From positions 139,225 to 203,224 of the forward strand of contig CBDCJQ010000002.1 of the NCBI GenBank assembly GCA_965217965.1: DNA of 64,000 nt, given 5' to 3'. The notes below the pieces were generated by a model. It was not told where the DNA came from and did not search any database. It saw only the letters and a list, made by a program, of their open reading frames with translations. A program made the translations under genes and the position numbers. Numbering within the stretch: the stretch's first letter is position 1; each line of letters begins with the position of its first letter. Shown here piece after piece: positions 57,149 through 63,958 of this stretch. This DNA comes from Hanamia sp. GTDB taxonomy: Bacteria; Bacteroidota; Bacteroidia; Chitinophagales; Chitinophagaceae.

Positions 57149-57496
57149 TAAAACTTTTTTGCCCCGCCAATAAATACATTTTTAAAAAAAACATAGCCGG
57201 AAAAACAGCATTATTGAAGTTGATCACCTAATATTGCTAATAACTAAAAGTATTGCCATCTGTAATACCGGATGCAATTATTTCATCCAACGCAGGTCTT
57301 CCCGTTCTTTTGTAAGCCCAATTCATCCACACGTGAGAACCGCCGTCTGGTCTCCTGACCAACCGGCAGCAAATTAAAACGCACTGAGGCATAATTCCAT
57401 ATTAGTATGTCCCTGGGCCAAAATGATATAACCAAGAATAAATGCTCTCAGCCAGCGTAAGATAACAATCAACCATAATTTTTATACATTAGTGTA

Positions 57497-57660
57497 ATGA
57501 ATCCAGATTACAGCATTCATGCAGCAGAATATTTCACGGCTACAATTTATGAATGGCAAGCCGTTCTTGCAGATGACAATCATAAGGATATAATAATAGA
57601 TAGTTTACAATATTTGGTAAAAGATAAAAGAATTGAACTAAACGCTTTTGTTTGCAAACA
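57497..57660 (+). pseudogene. RAYT (Y1 HUH transposase) N-terminal fragment 1a
   Basis: YFTATIYEW..DIIIDSLQYL..LNAFV, truncated before the HUH motif. Confidence 0.75.
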
Positions 57661-57722
57661 TGGTTTTAAGACTGCCTGTTATTAAATCTTTATACTTATC
57701 CGTCTTTAAAAGATGCTTCCAT
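57660..57722 (-). pseudogene. RAYT fragment 1b, fused tail-to-tail to 1a
   Basis: WKHLLKTDKYKDLITGSLKTM, near-identical to 60586-60647. Confidence 0.7.
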
Positions 57723-57841
57723 ATTAATACCATAACGGTATTAATAGTAGTGATAGCGCACGGCGTGGCATCTTAATAATTACCATTAGATAAAAATTCC
57801 GTGTGGGTCTACAATTTATAGGCAAAGTTTTTTTTTGGACA

Positions 57842-58999
57842 TTATAGTAATTGAGCTACTGTTTTAAATTTTCTTAAAAAATTTGTAATCATCCAGCTAA
57901 ACAAAAAGGCTCCAGCAAATACAATTAAAAATTTGACAATTACCGGCAGCGAAATTTGTATCAGCAGGAATTGAAACCAGGTTATAAAGACATAGTGGAT
58001 AAGATAAATACTGTAGGCATTTGCAGAGACGCTGTTCCAGGTATGGCTTAAAACATTTCCTTTCTTTTTAAAAAAAGAAAGGAAAGCAAGACTGCTGCTG
58101 ATGCAGCTTGCAACAAAAAATAAATCAAAAATTAACCAGGCTGCTTTAGAGCTGGCAGTATAAGGATTGATAAATACAGGAGCATAAAAAGTAAGCCATT
58201 CAATGATTGCATAGCTTATTACACAAAGCAATGCCCAGAACCACCATTTCTTATTCAACAGTTTATTACCTGTAAAAATATAATCTTCCCAATCACCCGC
58301 ACCTGAACAAACACCAAGTAAAAAGAAAACAAAATATAAAAAAAAGCGATTTACCTGGAAATCAAACGGGCCAAAACCTGTCCAGGTATATTGCCCAATC
58401 CAAATGCTTACAGGAATAAATGATATACACAATATTGCAAAAAATATTATCCAAAACACAACCGGTCTCTCAGTTAGTTTATAAATTTTATTAGATACCG
58501 TTATATAGAATTTTGGCGGGATGAATGCAGCAATAATATTGAACAATAATAATTCCCAAATAAACCAGGGTGGGCCTACAGGCCATTGTTCATTGAATAA
58601 ATAATCTTTAAGGAAAGCTGATAGCTGAAAGTTATGATGGCTTATATAATAAGAGGGCACATAAGCAAGAGGAATTATTGAGGACACGGCGATGATAAAA
58701 GGGATACCCAGTCTTTTCAACCTTTCAAGGAGGAATACTTTATTACCCTTTCTTTGAAGGCTTTTAAAAACAAAGAGCCCGCTTATTAAAAACATTAAGG
58801 ACATAAAAAAAATGTCATTAAAATTTTCAAAAATGTCCATTACAATCCACCTTTGATTATCAACAACCGGGGCGGTCGAATTAATGTAAGCAGTTGTATC
58901 AAAATAAGCAAACGTAGTATAAGCCAGCGATGCATGGTGCGCTACCACCAGCACGGTTATAAAAGCACGTAAATAATCAATCCAAAAATTTCTTTTCAT
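57842..58999 (-). CDS. Acyltransferase family 3 membrane protein (OpgC-like)
   Basis: WIDYLRA, FMSLMFLISG, GPPWFIW, YSIYLIH. Confidence 0.88.
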   Translation of the reverse strand: MKRNFWIDYLRAFITVLVVAHHASLAYTTFAYFDTTAYINSTAPVVDNQRWIVMDIFENFNDIFFMSLMFLISGLFVFKSLQRKGNKVFLLERLKRLGIPFIIAVSSIIPLAYVPSYYISHHNFQLSAFLKDYLFNEQWPVGPPWFIWELLLFNIIAAFIPPKFYITVSNKIYKLTERPVVFWIIFFAILCISFIPVSIWIGQYTWTGFGPFDFQVNRFFLYFVFFLLGVCSGAGDWEDYIFTGNKLLNKKWWFWALLCVISYAIIEWLTFYAPVFINPYTASSKAAWLIFDLFFVASCISSSLAFLSFFKKKGNVLSHTWNSVSANAYSIYLIHYVFITWFQFLLIQISLPVIVKFLIVFAGAFLFSWMITNFLRKFKTVAQLL

Positions 59000-59282
59000 A
59001 AACCTCTAAGAAAATTATAAGAAAATTAAATTTATAAAACAATATCCAGGTACTTTTGGCTTTTGGGATGTTTGAGACACACATCGCAAAATTAGATTTA
59101 TTGAAGCCAGATACACTTATGCAAATTTATAATACAGTATTTACGGACAAGTATAAAAAATCTAAGGCTGCTGCCTATCCTGGTGTCACCCATGTTTAGA
59201 AGAATTACCTGTTTTAAAAGAATTGAATAAAGAATATAAGGAACAGGATTTTAAACTTATCTTATTTAGTATTCTATGCCCG

Positions 59283-59987
59283 TGTTGGTGTTCCTTCTTC
59301 CAAACCTTAAAGCATTTACACAGAGTAAAAAGAGGCCATCTCACAAGCCGGCGGTACAACTAAATGGTTCTTTTTATTGCATTACGGCGTATCTCTTCCA
59401 ATAAATCTACCTTTTCCCAACAGAAAATCAATTGCTTTAATAACGTTCCTTTCAATACTTGCTTCTGTTTTGAGATTCGCTATATACCGGATAATTTCAT
59501 GTTGCAACGACGGAGCGAGGTCATCAAAAATTACTTTTGCCTGCTTATTTGCACGGAGTGCCTTCATAAGCTTTGGGTGTATGGGAATTGTTCTGTCTGC
59601 CGGGTCATATTCAATAGTCACTGCGATCGTTTCACCAATTCTTTTTGGCGATTGTTTAAGCATTGATGTATTAATATAAAGACGCCAGTCGCCGCTATAT
59701 TTCACCAATGTTTGTTTGTAGGGTAAGTTATTTATTGTGCCACGCACAGGAATTTTTCCTTTGTCCTTTCCGGCTTTTCTAAAAAGCTTTTTTAAGATCG
59801 GTCCAGGCACAAATACAAATGGGTTTATCCCGATAATCTCTATAGCGGCTTTGAATTGATGCATGCTAAATGAAAATACAAAACATAATGTCAACTGATT
59901 ATTTTGGATGTATCATCTTTCCTTGCTTTTTATGACCATGTTGGTGTTCCTTCTTCCAAACTTAAAGCGCTTACAATGAGTAAAAAG
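59283..59987. repeat. About 50-bp direct repeats (59283-59332 and 59939-59987) flanking the DUF1905 gene
   Basis: TGTTGGTGTTCCTTCTTCCAAAC..TTAAAGC..TTACA..GAGTAAAAAG present twice. Confidence 0.85.
59382..59894 (-). CDS. DUF1905 + YdeI/OmdA-associated domain protein
   Basis: IIGINPFV, KIPVRGTIN, WRLYIN, FDDLAPSLQHEIIRYI. Confidence 0.82.
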   Translation of the reverse strand: MTLCFVFSFSMHQFKAAIEIIGINPFVFVPGPILKKLFRKAGKDKGKIPVRGTINNLPYKQTLVKYSGDWRLYINTSMLKQSPKRIGETIAVTIEYDPADRTIPIHPKLMKALRANKQAKVIFDDLAPSLQHEIIRYIANLKTEASIERNVIKAIDFLLGKGRFIGRDTP

Positions 59988-60094
59988 CGACCGCCGATGT
60001 TGCGTGTTCCCCGAAAAAGCGGGGCAGGCTGTGCGGATGGTTTTGTAGCTACGCAATCACCAACATCAGTTTAGTGCCAATACACTACTGTAAA

Positions 60095-60727
60095 TTATTT
60101 TATTCCCATCCAATGCGTTAGAAAACCAAATTCATCCTTTCCACTTTCGTAAAATTTTGCAGAAGAATATTTATAATCTTCAGGATAAGCGCATAAGCCT
60201 GCCGCTACAGGATTATAATGCCCGCCCGGCTGAAGCCATTCGGACGGGGATGTATTCCATCTTTTGTCCGAATGGACTCCTTCGGAGTATAAACACTTCT
60301 TTTGTAAATAAATCTATACTTAATGGGTTGCGTTCCTGATCCCTCTTTGCATCGGGAGATACTTCCTGTCTTTTGCTCCCACATGAAATCTTTCTAAAAC
60401 TTTAGGATGATTTTTTTCTAAATCTCTTTTAATTGTTTGTGATACAAACTTTAAAAAATTACGTTGAACAGCATCTCTTTCATATCCTTCCTGAATTTGC
60501 CATACCTGTCTTGCCGGCAGGCAGGTTAAATGTATATGGTTACTCATAATAACAAATGCATTTACTTCTACCCATTTTCTTGTAACCATGGTTTTAAGAC
60601 TTCCTGTTATTACATCTTTATATTTATCCGGCTTTAAAAGATGCTTCCCCGTCCGAACGGTTCAGCCGGGCGGGCATTCTAAGATGGTACCTGTAAAATA
60701 TTGAGGATGATATTCTGTAATAGTAAT
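60095..60727 (-). pseudogene. RAYT gene 2 interrupted by five palindromic insertions
   Basis: After removing inserts: YFTGTILEWKHLL..NAFVIMSNHIHLIWQ..ERNPLSI..KMEYIHYNP..YKYSSA (HUH and catalytic Tyr motifs); about 174 codons. Confidence 0.85.
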
Positions 60728-60974
60728 GAAATTTTATTGATGCTAAGATATTAAAGAAATGAAAGTTTAGCTCTTCTTTAGTTCATGTCTCTCCAAAAGT
60801 TGTCCCAAAGGGATGGATTTCATTGGTGGTTGCCAGGCTACTAAACCATCAGCACAGCCTGCCCCGTTTTTCGGGGAACACACAACAACGGCAGCGTGTG
60901 GTTCTCTGGTGGTGGCGTGATTGTTTTAGGAAGACCAACGCCTGCGAAAAAAAGATGCCTAAGCATTTGGTGGT

Positions 60975-61385
60975 GTTACACCTGCTAACACTTGCCATAC
61001 CTGCCTGCCGGTAGGCAAGTTAAATGTATGTGGTTATTCATCCCGATAGCTATTCAATTCTTTTATCGTTTGCTAAATATTGAAACTTTCAATTATCAAT
61101 ACTCCGGTAATTTTTTAGGTTCTGAAACTCAATATGGGTAAGGGATTCATAAAATCGACATTTATTTTTTTGCAACTCAGCCTAAAAGCTGAGTTTGAGA
61201 ATAATAATTTCTAAATCTATACACACTGGTTATCAAAATGATACAAAAAATAAATTTAAAATTTGCTCTAAAAATCCTACCGGAGTATTGAATTATTATA
61301 TTCTGTCATCGGTAAGAATAGGTTGCCATTCATAAATTGTAACTGTAAAATATTGTGCTGCATGAATAGTGTATTCTGGATTCAT
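60975..61385 (-). pseudogene. RAYT gene 3, N-terminal half, split by a MITE and two palindromes
   Basis: MNPEYTIHAAQYFTVTIYEW..NIII/ESFQYLANDKRIE..MNNHIHL..WQV. Confidence 0.75.
61097..61290. mobile_element. 194-bp MITE with 13-bp terminal inverted repeats and 6-bp target duplication
   Basis: CAATACTCCGGTA..TACCGGAGTATTG flanked by AATTAT at 61091-96 and 61291-96. Confidence 0.85.
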
Positions 61386-61602
61386 TACTAATGTATATAA
61401 AATATGACTGCTTGTTGTCTTATGCCGGCTGAGAGCATTTAATCTTTGTTATATCATTTGGGCATAAAAACATACTATTCTGGAATCATGGATCAATGCG
61501 TTTTTAATTTTTGCCGGTGGTCAGTCCGAAGGACTCCCTTGGAGGAGACCAGACGGCGGCTCTCACGTGTGGATAGGTTGGACTCGCGAAAGAACGCGAA
61601 CA

Positions 61603-62346
61603 GTCGAGTAGGCAAAGGCATTTCAGCCCAAGCCGCTCAAAGAACCGTACGTGAAAGTCTCCCTTCATACGGCTCGTATTATCCAATCATGCTTTTATTC
61701 CAATCTTCCAATGATAAAACAACAAAGGGGTTTCTGCTTGCATCAATTGATACTTCTTGTACAACCTGTTCTTGCCTCGTATCTTATATGTGTTCTTCAT
61801 CCACTTGCGGATTAGTTCATTCAGATAATAAAATACGCTATGTGCTTCATCTCTGTTGAACCTTGTGTAGTAATTGATCCAGCCACGTATTTTAGGATTT
61901 AGCTTCTCTGCAAACCATTCTAACGACTGTGTACTCCACTGCGTTCGCAACACTTCTTTGATAGCTGTTCTGATACTCGTTTTGGCTGCATTGCAGATAG
62001 CTGCACTAAACACTAATAAGCGTTTTGCTCTGCCAAACTTATCCTTCACTGTTCTCGGCTGAAAACTATAACTTAGAAAGGTGAAGCTTTCATTATCGTG
62101 CTTTTCACAGCGCTGATAGTTTTTGCAATACACAATCTTCGTCTTTTCAGGATGCAGTGTTAATTCAAATTCCTGCATTCTTGTTTTCAGTTCTTCCAGC
62201 ATCTGATCAGCTTCTTCTTTACTGCTGCAATGTATTACGATGTCATCAGCGTAACGCTCAAAAGGACATTGCCGTTGTGCTTCATCCATCCACTTGTCAA
62301 AAGCATGATGCAGGTATATGTTAGCTAACAACGGACTAATCACTCC
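61603..62346 (-). mobile_element. 3' half of a group II intron (probably bacterial class D): RT/maturase C-half plus domains V and VI
   Basis: DV GAGCCGTATGAAGGGAGACTTTCACGTACGGTTC at 61675-61642 (AGC triad); DVI ending CCTACTCGAC at 61603. Confidence 0.9.
61687..62346 (-). pseudogene. ltrA: Group II intron reverse transcriptase/maturase, C-terminal half
   Basis: GVISPLLANIYLH, FERYADD, LHPEKTKI, FTFLSY, IRGWINYY; no endonuclease domain; RT0-4 N-part absent. Confidence 0.9.
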
Positions 62347-63958
62347 TCGTACACAATTGGTAATTTTTTTTATTTTGCTCATTTTTGTTCTCCTTTAAGG
62401 GTATGGAGTGCCTGATATCTATACTATTGTCACCAACCACAACCTCCTTTACCAGCAATCTTAAAATCTTCTTTTTTTCTTTTATATCCAGTTGATGAAC
62501 ATTAATGCCTAGCTGGTTTTTAAAGCTTTCTGCATCCAGGTATTGAAGCCGTTGATCCAATGCCAGCTCATGATTTTTCAGATTCTCCAACTCTTTCTCT
62601 GTGGTATTAACCCGCCTTTGTAATTCCGGCATTCGGGTTCTTAATTGCCCTATAGTGATAAGACCCTCCTGGTAAGCATCTAATAATTTATCCATTGACT
62701 GTGATAATTTATTACGCTGCCTGAGCATGGCTTCTTTTTGTTTTAATACAGGACTAGCCTTTCTTGTTTCTTCCACTCTTTTTTCGACTTCTCTTTGGAT
62801 CAGCATTGGGTCTTCTAATAACTCTGCTATCTGCTGCCACACAACATTGTCCAGGTAGTCTTGCCTGAGGGGTTTGCAATTACACTTTCTTACTCCTTCA
62901 AAGCGATAAGGATCTGAACCAAAACATCTGTAATAATAAATCCTTTTTTTTGCTGATGTTTCTGTATACGTTCTGTATAAAGAATAGCCGCATTCACTGC
63001 ACACCATCATACCCTGCAGCAATGTTTCTACTTTTGTATTCCGCTGTGAATGGAGCTTATTGCTTTTTAACCTTTCCTGTGCGATATCAAAAACATCCTG
63101 GCTGATTATAGCCGGCACCGGGATTTCTATCCATTCTTCTCTTGGCTTTTCCCTGTTACACCCATTCTTTACTGCAAATCCGCCCTTTGCTCTTAATGGT
63201 TTAGTAATTCTTTGGCGTTCTGCATGCTCTGTTTTTCCATAACAAGCTTTACCACAATAAGCAGGATTTCGAAGCATTGCCCAGATAACAGAACGTTCCC
63301 ATTTACCTGTATTTTTTCTTGTCGGTATTTTTTCAGCAGTAAACTTTCTGGCAACGGTGCCTATGCTACAAAAATCTTCTGTATACATCCGGAACAGTTC
63401 CTTTACCACTTCAGCTTCCTTTTCATTGATTTGATAATAAGCTGCGGCATCCTCGGTCTTCCTGATATAGCTATAGCCATAAGGCGCACCACATAATACA
63501 TTCACCACCCCTGATTTGGCTTTATAACGTTTCCCTCTGCGGCACCGCTCCTTAATAATTGCCCGTTCGTACTCTGAGATCATGCCCTGAAACTGTAATA
63601 ACAACGCTTCTTCCGGAGTATCTGCTTTTGGTGAGTTAATAAATAATACTTCCGTACCACACGATGCAAATTCATCCATTAATACTACCTGATATGCATA
63701 ATTGCGGCTCAGGCGGTCAGGACTATAAATTAATATCGCCTGTATCTGACCTTCGGCACTCAGGTCTCTTACTCTTTCAAGTCCAGGCCTAACTAATATA
63801 GCACCACTATACCCTTCATCTTTAAGCACATACTCATCCGGAACAACATAACCTTGCTGTTCTGCAAAACTTAAGAGTTCGTCCACCTGACTGCCAATGG
63901 TTTTATTCTCCTTCTGCTGGTTCGAGGACACTCTGGTGTATATGGCTGCTGTTTTCAT
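62336..63958 (-). CDS. Large serine recombinase
   Basis: YTRVSS catalytic Ser, DEGYSG, DRLSR, GAPYGY, zinc ribbon CSECG..YYRC, coiled coil. Confidence 0.95.
   Translation of the reverse strand: MKTAAIYTRVSSNQQKENKTIGSQVDELLSFAEQQGYVVPDEYVLKDEGYSGAILVRPGLERVRDLSAEGQIQAILIYSPDRLSRNYAYQVVLMDEFASCGTEVLFINSPKADTPEEALLLQFQGMISEYERAIIKERCRRGKRYKAKSGVVNVLCGAPYGYSYIRKTEDAAAYYQINEKEAEVVKELFRMYTEDFCSIGTVARKFTAEKIPTRKNTGKWERSVIWAMLRNPAYCGKACYGKTEHAERQRITKPLRAKGGFAVKNGCNREKPREEWIEIPVPAIISQDVFDIAQERLKSNKLHSQRNTKVETLLQGMMVCSECGYSLYRTYTETSAKKRIYYYRCFGSDPYRFEGVRKCNCKPLRQDYLDNVVWQQIAELLEDPMLIQREVEKRVEETRKASPVLKQKEAMLRQRNKLSQSMDKLLDAYQEGLITIGQLRTRMPELQRRVNTTEKELENLKNHELALDQRLQYLDAESFKNQLGINVHQLDIKEKKKILRLLVKEVVVGDNSIDIRHSIPLKENKNEQNKKNYQLCTRSD

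Follow-up and report, generated by a model that had tools for sequence, protein, structure and literature searches.

A dead RAYT-type transposase gene bearing five short inserts is, as we consider somewhat probable, a sink for a genome-wide burst of hairpin elements, and not the author of its own destruction. The gene (60095..60733, minus strand) lies in the window analysed here, a stretch of 64,000 nucleotides corresponding to G000:C2:139225-203224, in a genome (G000) of 6.25 Mb with 39% G+C, assembled in 3 contigs. Three families of hairpins found within it, called here A, B and D, are dispersed over this genome and expanded in it, A and B in it alone among the congeners compared, and are as dense in several other classes of transposase genes as in the RAYT loci. 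In working genes, the surviving copies are filtered for reading frame. The recurrent use of the same insertion sites in other RAYT copies nevertheless keeps a targeting component alive, and this has to be weighed against the simple sink.

Read in three frames, the pseudogene translates as ITEYHPQYFTGTILE...NAFVIMSNHIHL...WQIQEGYERD...ERNPLSIDLFTKEVFI...QKMEYI...HYNPVAAGL...FGFLTHWM, in which the HUH motif (SNHIHL) and the catalytic-Tyr motif (EYI/HYNP) are interrupted by inserts 2 and 5, respectively. No canonical start codon is found in the pseudogene or in its intact orthologues. A Pfam search with the broken pieces gave no match, and the family was thus assigned through paralogues and orthologues. 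Intact RAYT paralogues are present elsewhere in the genome, where intact RAYTs lie at C1:2554420-2554944 and C2:2823477-2824001, and intact orthologues of 173 aa are known within the same genus, from G002 and from G004, which has two copies with 93% identity to the read-through; the copies at G004:C2:283063-283569 (L002) and G002:C45:87049-87555 (L003) were used as references. An intact orthologue matches the NCBIfam profile NF047646 (REP_Tyr_transpos) with E = 4.1e-22 and 78.6 bits, which is below the cut-off of 80, and a RAYT paralogue reaches 71.9 bits on this profile (cut-off 80) and 16.7 bits on Pfam Y1_Tnp (cut-off 23). The best PDB match of the intact orthologue is E. coli TnpA-REP (4er8_A), with which the HUH region aligns, and the HUH motif and the single catalytic Tyr occur in conserved order (SNHIHL, EYIHYNP) in the intact orthologues. 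Judged from its sequence, the gene is a RAYT-like Y1 HUH transposase, and not a strict equivalog. About 12 RAYT loci, many of them dead, are found in G000, and multiple copies and fragments are present in most of 81 genomes of the genus, which is not the pattern of few copies inherited vertically. None of the conclusions drawn here depends on the unpublished genomes G035 and G045. The classical RAYT-REP pairs of G000 involve the families F3 and F20. A cognate dispersed REP or REPIN flanking the pseudogene was not found; its flanks are terminal inverted repeats (TIRs) of ~60 bp, which are not dispersed, the genome having only 3 copies of them.

These repeats, the leader and the gene together form a block of ~1 kb (59935..60950, minus strand) that is conserved with a sibling in G055. 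This closest sibling (L031, at G055:C7) can be aligned over 851 nt with 47 substitutions, which corresponds to 5.5% divergence, and the similarity stops at ~60950 and ~59935. The DNA outside the block is unrelated in the two genomes, which places the two copies in different genomic contexts, and we conclude from this that the gene belongs to a mobile unit. With its RAYT-like gene lying between terminal inverted repeats of ~60 bp, this unit fits the TIRYT/TIRtron of Di Nocera. Each of the two repeats carries a hairpin insert of its own. In the upstream TIR (60824..60893), the insert is of 20 nt (CCCCGAAAAACGGGG..., 60855-60874); the TIRs of L071 and L051 lack it, and L050 has a variant of it. 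The downstream TIR (59993..60065) carries a mirror-image hairpin insert at 60010-60030, which is absent in L071, L051, L053 and L059 and is represented by a variant in L082. The TIR hairpin, CCCCG-A5-CGGGG, was also considered as a dispersed family, and this was rejected: it is confined to this type of TIR, with three copies genome-wide.

Five inserts are observed within the gene itself. When the minus-strand gene is aligned as DNA (MAFFT) to the intact orthologues L002 and L003, all five are missing from both orthologues, and no target-site duplication is seen at any of them. Insert 1 (60648..60674, minus strand) is a family A hairpin of 27 nt, located inside the W codon TGG (GAAT^GG); all of its 27 nucleotides are found at the same site in L051, which comes from another MAG, and 26 of the 27 in a RAYT fragment at G055:C11. 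Insert 2 (60505..60525) is a degenerate family B palindrome of 21 nt, which lies at TTTAA^TATGG, directly after the HUH motif (HIHL^IW). Insert 4 (~60266..60286, minus strand) is a 21-nt double mini-hairpin of family D, at TTTAT^ACAAAAG (FI^QK), and a loop variant of it occupies the same site in L038 of G092. The apparent compensatory changes between these two copies were rejected as evidence for independent origin, since in a model of two mini-hairpins only the loops differ. Insert 5 (60221..60248, plus strand) is a frameshifting family A hairpin of 28 nt, opposite in orientation to insert 1, which splits YI^HYNP beside the catalytic Tyr; among the RAYT copies compared, it is seen in this one only. 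The DNA folding energies are -7.0 kcal/mol for insert 1, -7.5 for insert 5 and -5.0 for insert 4, and the family B consensus folds with -8.9 kcal/mol, compared with -3.0 for the degenerate copy of insert 2.

Insert 3 (60336..60357, minus strand) is of a different kind. Its 22 nt (TCCCGATGCAAAGAGGGATCAG, containing TCCCGATGCAAAGAGGGA) replace the 8-nt AGTTTTGG of the orthologues at KY^QFW, with a net frameshift of +14, and it folds weakly (-1.7 kcal/mol). It belongs to no dispersed family in G000, where one copy and one 15/17 look-alike are found. The idea that it could be a TCCCGATAGCTATCGGGA (F12) element that has diverged was rejected as unproven, the matches amounting to 12/18 only. The same insert is common to L071 (G055), L082 (G073) and L006 (G010), dead copies that are without the other inserts, and a variant with a different junction is present in L036 (G081).

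The original prediction had announced five palindromic insertions from four families. All five are indeed found at the predicted positions and are absent from the intact orthologues, but insert 3 turns out to be a replacement of 8 nt by 22 nt instead of a simple insertion. Likewise, families can be recognised for inserts 1 and 5 (A), 2 (B) and 4 (D), but not for insert 3. The alignment with the orthologues also bears out that insert 1 is in frame but contains a TGA, and that neither insert 2 nor insert 4 shifts the frame or contains a stop; the idea that these two add peptides is irrelevant, however, in a gene that is frameshifted.

Since a strict scan for GC-rich hairpins found just two of the five inserts, the elements of G000 were counted by family, which gave ~24 dispersed families of mini-palindromes and ~460 elements. 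Family A has ~21 copies, family B ~90 (consensus CCTGCCTGCCGGCAGGCAGG) and family D ~16. All three consist of short GC-rich stem-loops and are dispersed, the proportion of copy pairs with similar flanks being 0.01-0.07. The site consensus of family A is RAWG^GA, with a G at position -1 in 11 of 14 sites, and family B displays genome-wide a loose preference for A-rich^T-rich flanks, for example AA^TATG. Family A ends with CC-CGTC-CGAA, whose CGTC may correspond to one of the two tags, GTAG and CGTC, by which Di Nocera 2013 defines one end of a REP; families B and D have neither GTAG nor CGTC. No intact RAYT gene of G000 is flanked by family A, B or D. Counts with a strict pattern gave 37 copies of family B in G000, against one in G055, three in G004 and none in G002 or G010; the corresponding numbers for family A are 13 in G000, against none in G055, two in G004, none in G002 and one in G010. 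Families A and B have thus expanded in G000 only, as compared with these four congeners.

A large part of these elements resides within genes. Of family B (F0), 33/60 copies lie in open frames of at least 200 aa, as do 10/21 of family A and 7/16 of family D, and these families are thus not predominantly extragenic, as REPs are expected to be; by contrast, families F2, F3, F4, F8 and F13 are almost all extragenic. In all, 49 of 129 A/B/D copies are read through within open frames of this length. A sharp filter appears when the length of family B is considered: in the interiors of open frames are found 15 of the 17 copies of 21 nt, and none of the 20 copies of 20 nt. The 21-nt form is nearly always read as (N/D)LPAGQAG. 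The best documented host is Ffh, where the comparison with B. subtilis Ffh (PDB 7o5b_g) shows a gap of 7 aa precisely at LPAGQAG. The other in-frame hosts, which we name by the appearance of their sequences, are presumably PurF, PurL, PurM, LeuRS, PDH-E1beta and an Hsp70.

The strong local excess that the original prediction had claimed for the RAYT gene is real when other non-ORF DNA is taken as the reference. The A/B/D density in this DNA is 0.048/kb, which gives 0.03 elements expected in 633 bp against four observed (Poisson P = 3.5e-8). The excess is not specific to RAYT genes, however. The A/B/D density is 1.26/kb in the RAYT loci, 1.41/kb in the IS66 copies, 1.18/kb in the IS5-like genes and 1.14/kb in the YhgA-like (Pfam Transposase_31) genes; these control classes are transposase genes, of which IS66 and YhgA are named from Pfam profiles and "IS5-like" is read from sequence, the tested piece having no Pfam match, and their counts include duplicated copies. 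Unique events, estimated by hand from the flanks, are ~5 in 2.6 kb for IS66, 2 in 1.7 kb for the IS5-like genes and 2 in 1 kb for the YhgA-like genes. When all 650-bp windows are ranked, the first place among clusters of mixed families is shared by the RAYT locus and an IS66 transposase gene. In this IS66 gene, four elements are present in 558 bp, one of them a family A copy that falls exactly between positions 133 and 134 of the Pfam DDE_Tnp_IS66 profile, and longer frames are restored once the flanks are joined. No intact IS66 copy is found in G000. An equally high density in other dead genes is what the original prediction itself had named as speaking against it, so that its claim of RAYT-specificity is not supported as it stands. 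Its alternative suggestion, that palindrome families target RAYT genes, fares better in one respect, since insertion sites recur across paralogues and species, but it meets the same difficulty, the density being the same in the other transposase classes.

The recurrence of sites is most striking at HIHL^IW. This position is occupied by family B in three RAYT paralogues of G000 that share 40-50% protein identity, at the sites TTTAA^TATGG or GTAT^TATGG, the inserts being different in sequence and length. One of them is a 20-nt palindrome (60999..61019) at the homologous site of a neighbouring divergent RAYT remnant, which extends over ~61000-61400 of the window; the position is also occupied at C2:1735795. 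Outside G000, it is occupied in L014 and L190 of G018, and a 16-nt variant is seen in G018 and in a metagenome contig. The metagenome scan for the HIHL^family-B junction gave one true RAYT among the 80 loci listed, the rest being chance matches. At YIHYN^P, family B is found in G089 as well as in a second G000 paralogue (C2:1742133). Taken over all copies, HIHL^IW, KY^QFW, W^K, FI^QK and YIHYN^P are each occupied in other paralogues or species.

The history of the inserts does not simply follow that of the gene. The sibling at G055:C7 carries insert 3 only, and has gained no insert relative to the G000 copy, which has seven more (inserts 1, 2, 4 and 5, both TIR hairpins and an insert in the leader, described below) together with two small indels. 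This asymmetry follows from the specificity of the family A/B burst for the G000 lineage. A FastTree tree calculated from 580 columns pairs our copy, which has all the inserts, with G055:C7 (insert 3), with L051 (insert 1) as the next branch and the G004 copies outside. The other copies with insert 3 fall in distant clades, amid insert-free genes, and a four-point test also supports pairing the G000 copy with L002, the insert-free copy of G004. The presence and absence of inserts is thus in conflict with the tree of the RAYT genes, a pattern that recurrent site-specific insertion, recombination between variants of the unit or precise excision could have produced. Insert 3 is probably the older, inactivating lesion, because at least three other species have dead copies that share it, and its presence in these dead copies implies that the gene was probably already frameshifted when the hairpin burst arrived.

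The following scenario would account for most of these observations. The RAYT unit would have been inactivated first, by the 22-for-8-nt replacement at KY^QFW. Families A, B and D, as GC-rich hairpins of 20-28 nt, would have expanded later in the G000 lineage, inserting precisely and without target duplication at loosely defined short motifs, through a chemistry that may be of the single-stranded DNA, HUH type. They would land everywhere and selection would then filter the copies, so that working genes would keep only in-frame, stop-free ones at tolerated positions, such as the 21-nt form of family B (LPAGQAG), and dispensable DNA, such as the dead RAYT, IS66, IS5-like and YhgA-like genes, would keep copies of any length and frame. 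If the neutral density is ~1.2/kb, the 49 intragenic survivors imply a tolerance of ~0.8%, which is plausible for filters acting on length, frame and position, and ~0.8 copies are expected in a gene of 633 bp. Four A/B/D elements in 633 bp are still ~5 times the mean of the transposase classes (P ~0.009, before the choice among ~20 such loci). Furthermore, the elements are ~25 times denser in dead transposase genes than in other non-ORF DNA, and neutrality would require that only ~5% of the non-ORF DNA tolerates hairpins. Possibly few intergenic positions do so, since a family B hairpin with T-rich sequence behind it looks like a terminator. The recurrent sites, found even in genomes where the families are rare and in conflict with the gene tree, are not predicted by a pure sink.

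This last point leads to the opposite view, in which insertion is directed into RAYT units, either because the Y1 HUH enzyme pastes hairpins in cis into its own gene and TIRs or because the hairpins home to the conserved motifs coding for the HUH and Tyr residues, the gene being knocked out recurrently. Such a directed process appears rather unlikely to us, although several observations argue for it: family B at the identical homologous nucleotide position in three divergent paralogues, and again in G018 and a metagenome contig; the occupation of FI^QK by family D in G092, and of YIHYN^P by family B in G089 and at C2:1742133; and the TIR-specific hairpin, which is found at mirrored places in the two repeats and of which other genomes have loop variants. 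The inserts are homoplastic on the gene tree, a four-point test pairs our copy with L002, the whole unit is affected (compared with the sibling, the gene and its flanks have ~7 hits/kb each), and a RAYT fragment bears insert 1 in G055, a genome almost devoid of family A. Equal densities in IS66, IS5-like and YhgA-like genes, which encode DDE or PD-(D/E)XK enzymes unrelated to HUH, are difficult to reconcile with it. So are the lack of any intact RAYT flanked by A, B or D, the opposite orientations of inserts 1 and 5, which leave no single-strand bias visible, and the merely loose A-rich/T-rich preference of family B genome-wide. Self-inactivation in cis, as proposed in the original prediction, is not supported as it stands: the three families flank no intact RAYT, and the gene was probably already dead through insert 3; a gene frameshifted before most inserts arrived could not have acted on itself. 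An independent and recurrent homing of hairpins, in several species and paralogues, to HUH/Tyr-coding DNA and to the TIRs of RAYT/TIRYT units, where they would behave as parasites of the transposase or as a brake on it and where precise gain and loss would explain the conflict with the tree, we regard as unlikely.

Part of the same evidence can be read as inheritance, each insert having arisen once in a different lineage, with trans-mobilised dead copies and recombination or gene conversion assembling them and precise excision adding losses. Insert 1 is identical in L051 (27/27) and nearly so in the G055 fragment (26/27), and insert 3 is identical at 20-21 of its 22 nt, with the same 6-nt deletion, in copies that are ~80% identical elsewhere, which is not expected of independent events. 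The five local hits of the original prediction were accordingly not all independent, one of them being found letter for letter in L051 and another in the dead copies of other species. A four-gamete pattern is also formed by L051 (insert 1 only), L071 (insert 3 only), our copy (both) and L002 (neither), and the unit lies in different genomic contexts in G000 and G055. A mosaic of this kind is nonetheless improbable as the general explanation, because none of the close relatives sampled has insert 2, 4 or 5 or either of the TIR hairpins, the same-site inserts of the divergent paralogues differ in sequence and length and are thus not copies of one event, and no raised similarity of the flanks, as a sign of a recent conversion tract, surrounds insert 3. 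The relatives are mostly MAGs and G000 itself is in 3 contigs, so that hairpins introduced or misplaced in repeats by assembly or consensus errors were also considered. We find this very hard to believe, since the inserts belong exactly to families of which dozens of copies lie at unique sites, the copies in intact genes preserve the reading frame, and inserts identical in sequence and position turn up in assemblies made independently in other studies.

RAYT genes are usually present in one to two copies per genome, and multi-copy, IS-like RAYT groups have also been described (PMC5581495). The unit studied here resembles the RAYT/TnpA-REP systems in encoding a small Y1 HUH protein, with its HUH and Tyr motifs, in a gene bracketed by inverted repeats, and other RAYTs of G000 have REP families of their own, F3 and F20, on their flanks. 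It differs from them in its number of loci (at least 12 in G000, many dead), in its IS-like nature, with differing contexts across genomes, and in the hairpins lying within the gene, which come from families that do not flank it. Intragenic REPs, RPEs, REPs nested in palindromes and TIR-flanked RAYT-like genes have already been published (Di Nocera 2013, PMC3733652), and in Xanthomonas recB such elements have been reported to recur close to one site of the homologous genes (PMC3733652). REPs inside RAYT genes are not described in the RAYT/REP literature cited here (PMC3733652, PMC5581495).

The hairpins of G000 are comparable to intragenic REPs and RPEs in being GC-rich elements of 20-28 nt, some of them nested in palindromes, and in residing in frame in housekeeping genes; the copy in Ffh is in frame in an intact conserved gene and absent from the B. 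subtilis homologue, as is characteristic of such elements. The Rickettsia palindromic elements (RPE), attributed to Ogata in 2000, are said to be short palindromes lying in frame in working genes. The elements described here belong to another phylum and to other families, show a sharp split between 20 nt and 21 nt in dead versus coding DNA, and are strongly enriched in transposase hosts. The SDR of heterocystous cyanobacteria, reportedly described by Elhai and colleagues in 2008 as imperfect palindromes of ~21-27 nt that insert precisely, become nested and occur within genes, are similar in being very small, precisely inserting palindromes within genes, but they are found in cyanobacteria and not in Bacteroidota. 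No enzyme mobilising the SDR is known, and transposase genes are not known to be their preferred hosts. Another possible analogy is provided by the IS200/IS605 elements (IS608, ISDra2), whose single-strand "peel and paste" transposition relies on hairpins and generates no target duplication. The G000 hairpins may be likened to them by the lack of target duplication and by their position next to a short motif (RAWG^GA for family A), and precise excision of this type would explain the conflicts of presence and absence. They differ from these elements by a size of just 20-28 nt, by having no distinct left and right ends, and by the occurrence of both orientations in one gene. No cognate TnpA for the A/B/D hairpins was identified.

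If the sink reading is true, the gene is an ordinary dead transposase gene, yet one that keeps a record of how elements of 20-28 nt, among the smallest mobile ones known, recently multiplied in a burst specific to this genome. These elements add peptides of 7-9 residues to proteins including Ffh and, by the appearance of their sequences, purine-synthesis enzymes, and the 20-nt/21-nt split makes family B a natural experiment in the filtering of insertions by selection. Should the recurrent-site reading hold instead, it would amount to a target-specific invasion of HUH transposase genes by hairpins, and would give a handle on the long-open question of what mobilises REP- and SDR-like mini-elements.

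A few features of the unit come in addition to the five inserts of the original prediction. Besides the TIR hairpins mentioned above, they include an insert of 20 nt in the 5' leader (60804..60823, minus strand), which is essentially single-copy and was seen relative to the closest sibling. It was rejected as a hairpin, since it folds no better than shuffled sequences (z = 0.06). The two others are located near the end of the gene: an insertion of 5 nt (60087-60091), and an extra G (+1) at position 60107 (minus strand), close to the stop, which changes the last codons from WME* to WMGIK*.

Family B, one of the dispersed GC-rich hairpin families of the Hanamia genome, occurs genome-wide in a 20-nt and a 21-nt form, whose locations differ. 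The interiors of open frames contain 15 of the 17 copies of the 21-nt form, as against none of the 20 copies of the 20-nt form; this split is a clean signature of reading-frame selection. Outside the window, several in-frame 21-nt hairpins are read as (N/D)LPAGQAG (C1:2199273, C1:1802484, C1:2328636, C2:1316621, C2:2605180, C2:2488853 and 2489337). Their hosts are Ffh and ORFs that look like PurF, PurL, PurM, PDH-E1beta and Hsp70/HscA, the last of which carries two copies. For Ffh, the only host compared with a solved structure, the peptide of this type corresponds to a 7-residue gap. A family D peptide, SEWTPLE, is present in a LeuRS-like open frame lying outside the window at about 108–112 kb of C2. 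An internal segment of this ORF looks like a DUF559/Vsr-type endonuclease domain, with palindromes of the CCCTCTCC...GGAGAGGG type on both sides and a single frame throughout.

Inserts are also found in RAYT copies of other species. L015 (G010:C4) and L038 (G092:C13), from two other species, have in common an in-frame DPIAIG insert (TCCCGATAGCTATCGGGA type) at the C-terminal ...GxDEFGFL motif, a further shared or recurrent insert site.

Two more RAYT remnants, of a lineage differing from that of the main gene and in inverted orientation, lie in the window at 57297–57740 and 61000–61600; the latter carries, at about 61000, a separate family B insert in the HIHL^IW position, directly after the HUH motif. 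Between them are an acyltransferase gene (57842–58999) and a DUF1905/OmdA gene (59382–59894). A fragment of a group II intron reverse transcriptase/maturase (RVT_1 and GIIM) and an adjoining 540-aa ORF, which looks like a large serine recombinase, occupy 61687–63958, so that the RAYT cluster lies on the margin of a region rich in mobile elements. For the outer portion of the main unit's inverted repeat there is a second partial copy (59276–59340 and 59908–59990), which translates as LVFLLPNLKA...SKKRP; its position between the DUF1905 and acyltransferase genes suggests that solo terminal inverted repeats exist.

No ATG, GTG or TTG was found between the upstream stop and NFFIITEYH in the window copy (60716–60736) or in its intact 173-aa orthologues L002 (G004:C2) and L003 (G002:C45). 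ATT/ATA may serve as the start codon of this RAYT gene, or translation may begin elsewhere.

Two classical REPtrons are present in the same genome (C2:2823340–2824410 and C2:221685–222438). One is an intact RAYT with F3 hairpins (GGTTCGTGAGACACGAACC; about 44 copies genome-wide) on both sides, the other a RAYT-like gene with flanking F20 hairpins. The densest palindrome clusters of the genome are regular arrays in which F4, F8 and F13 hairpins alternate, with 8–11 hairpins per 650 bp (C2:2486247–2487111, C1:1062331–1063043 and C1:2065845–2066260), which may be BIME-like arrays or coding repeats. Another repeat, the 30-mer CTTTTAATTGTACCATAGAGGAATTGAAAT, occurs about 120 times genome-wide and presumably represents a large CRISPR array.
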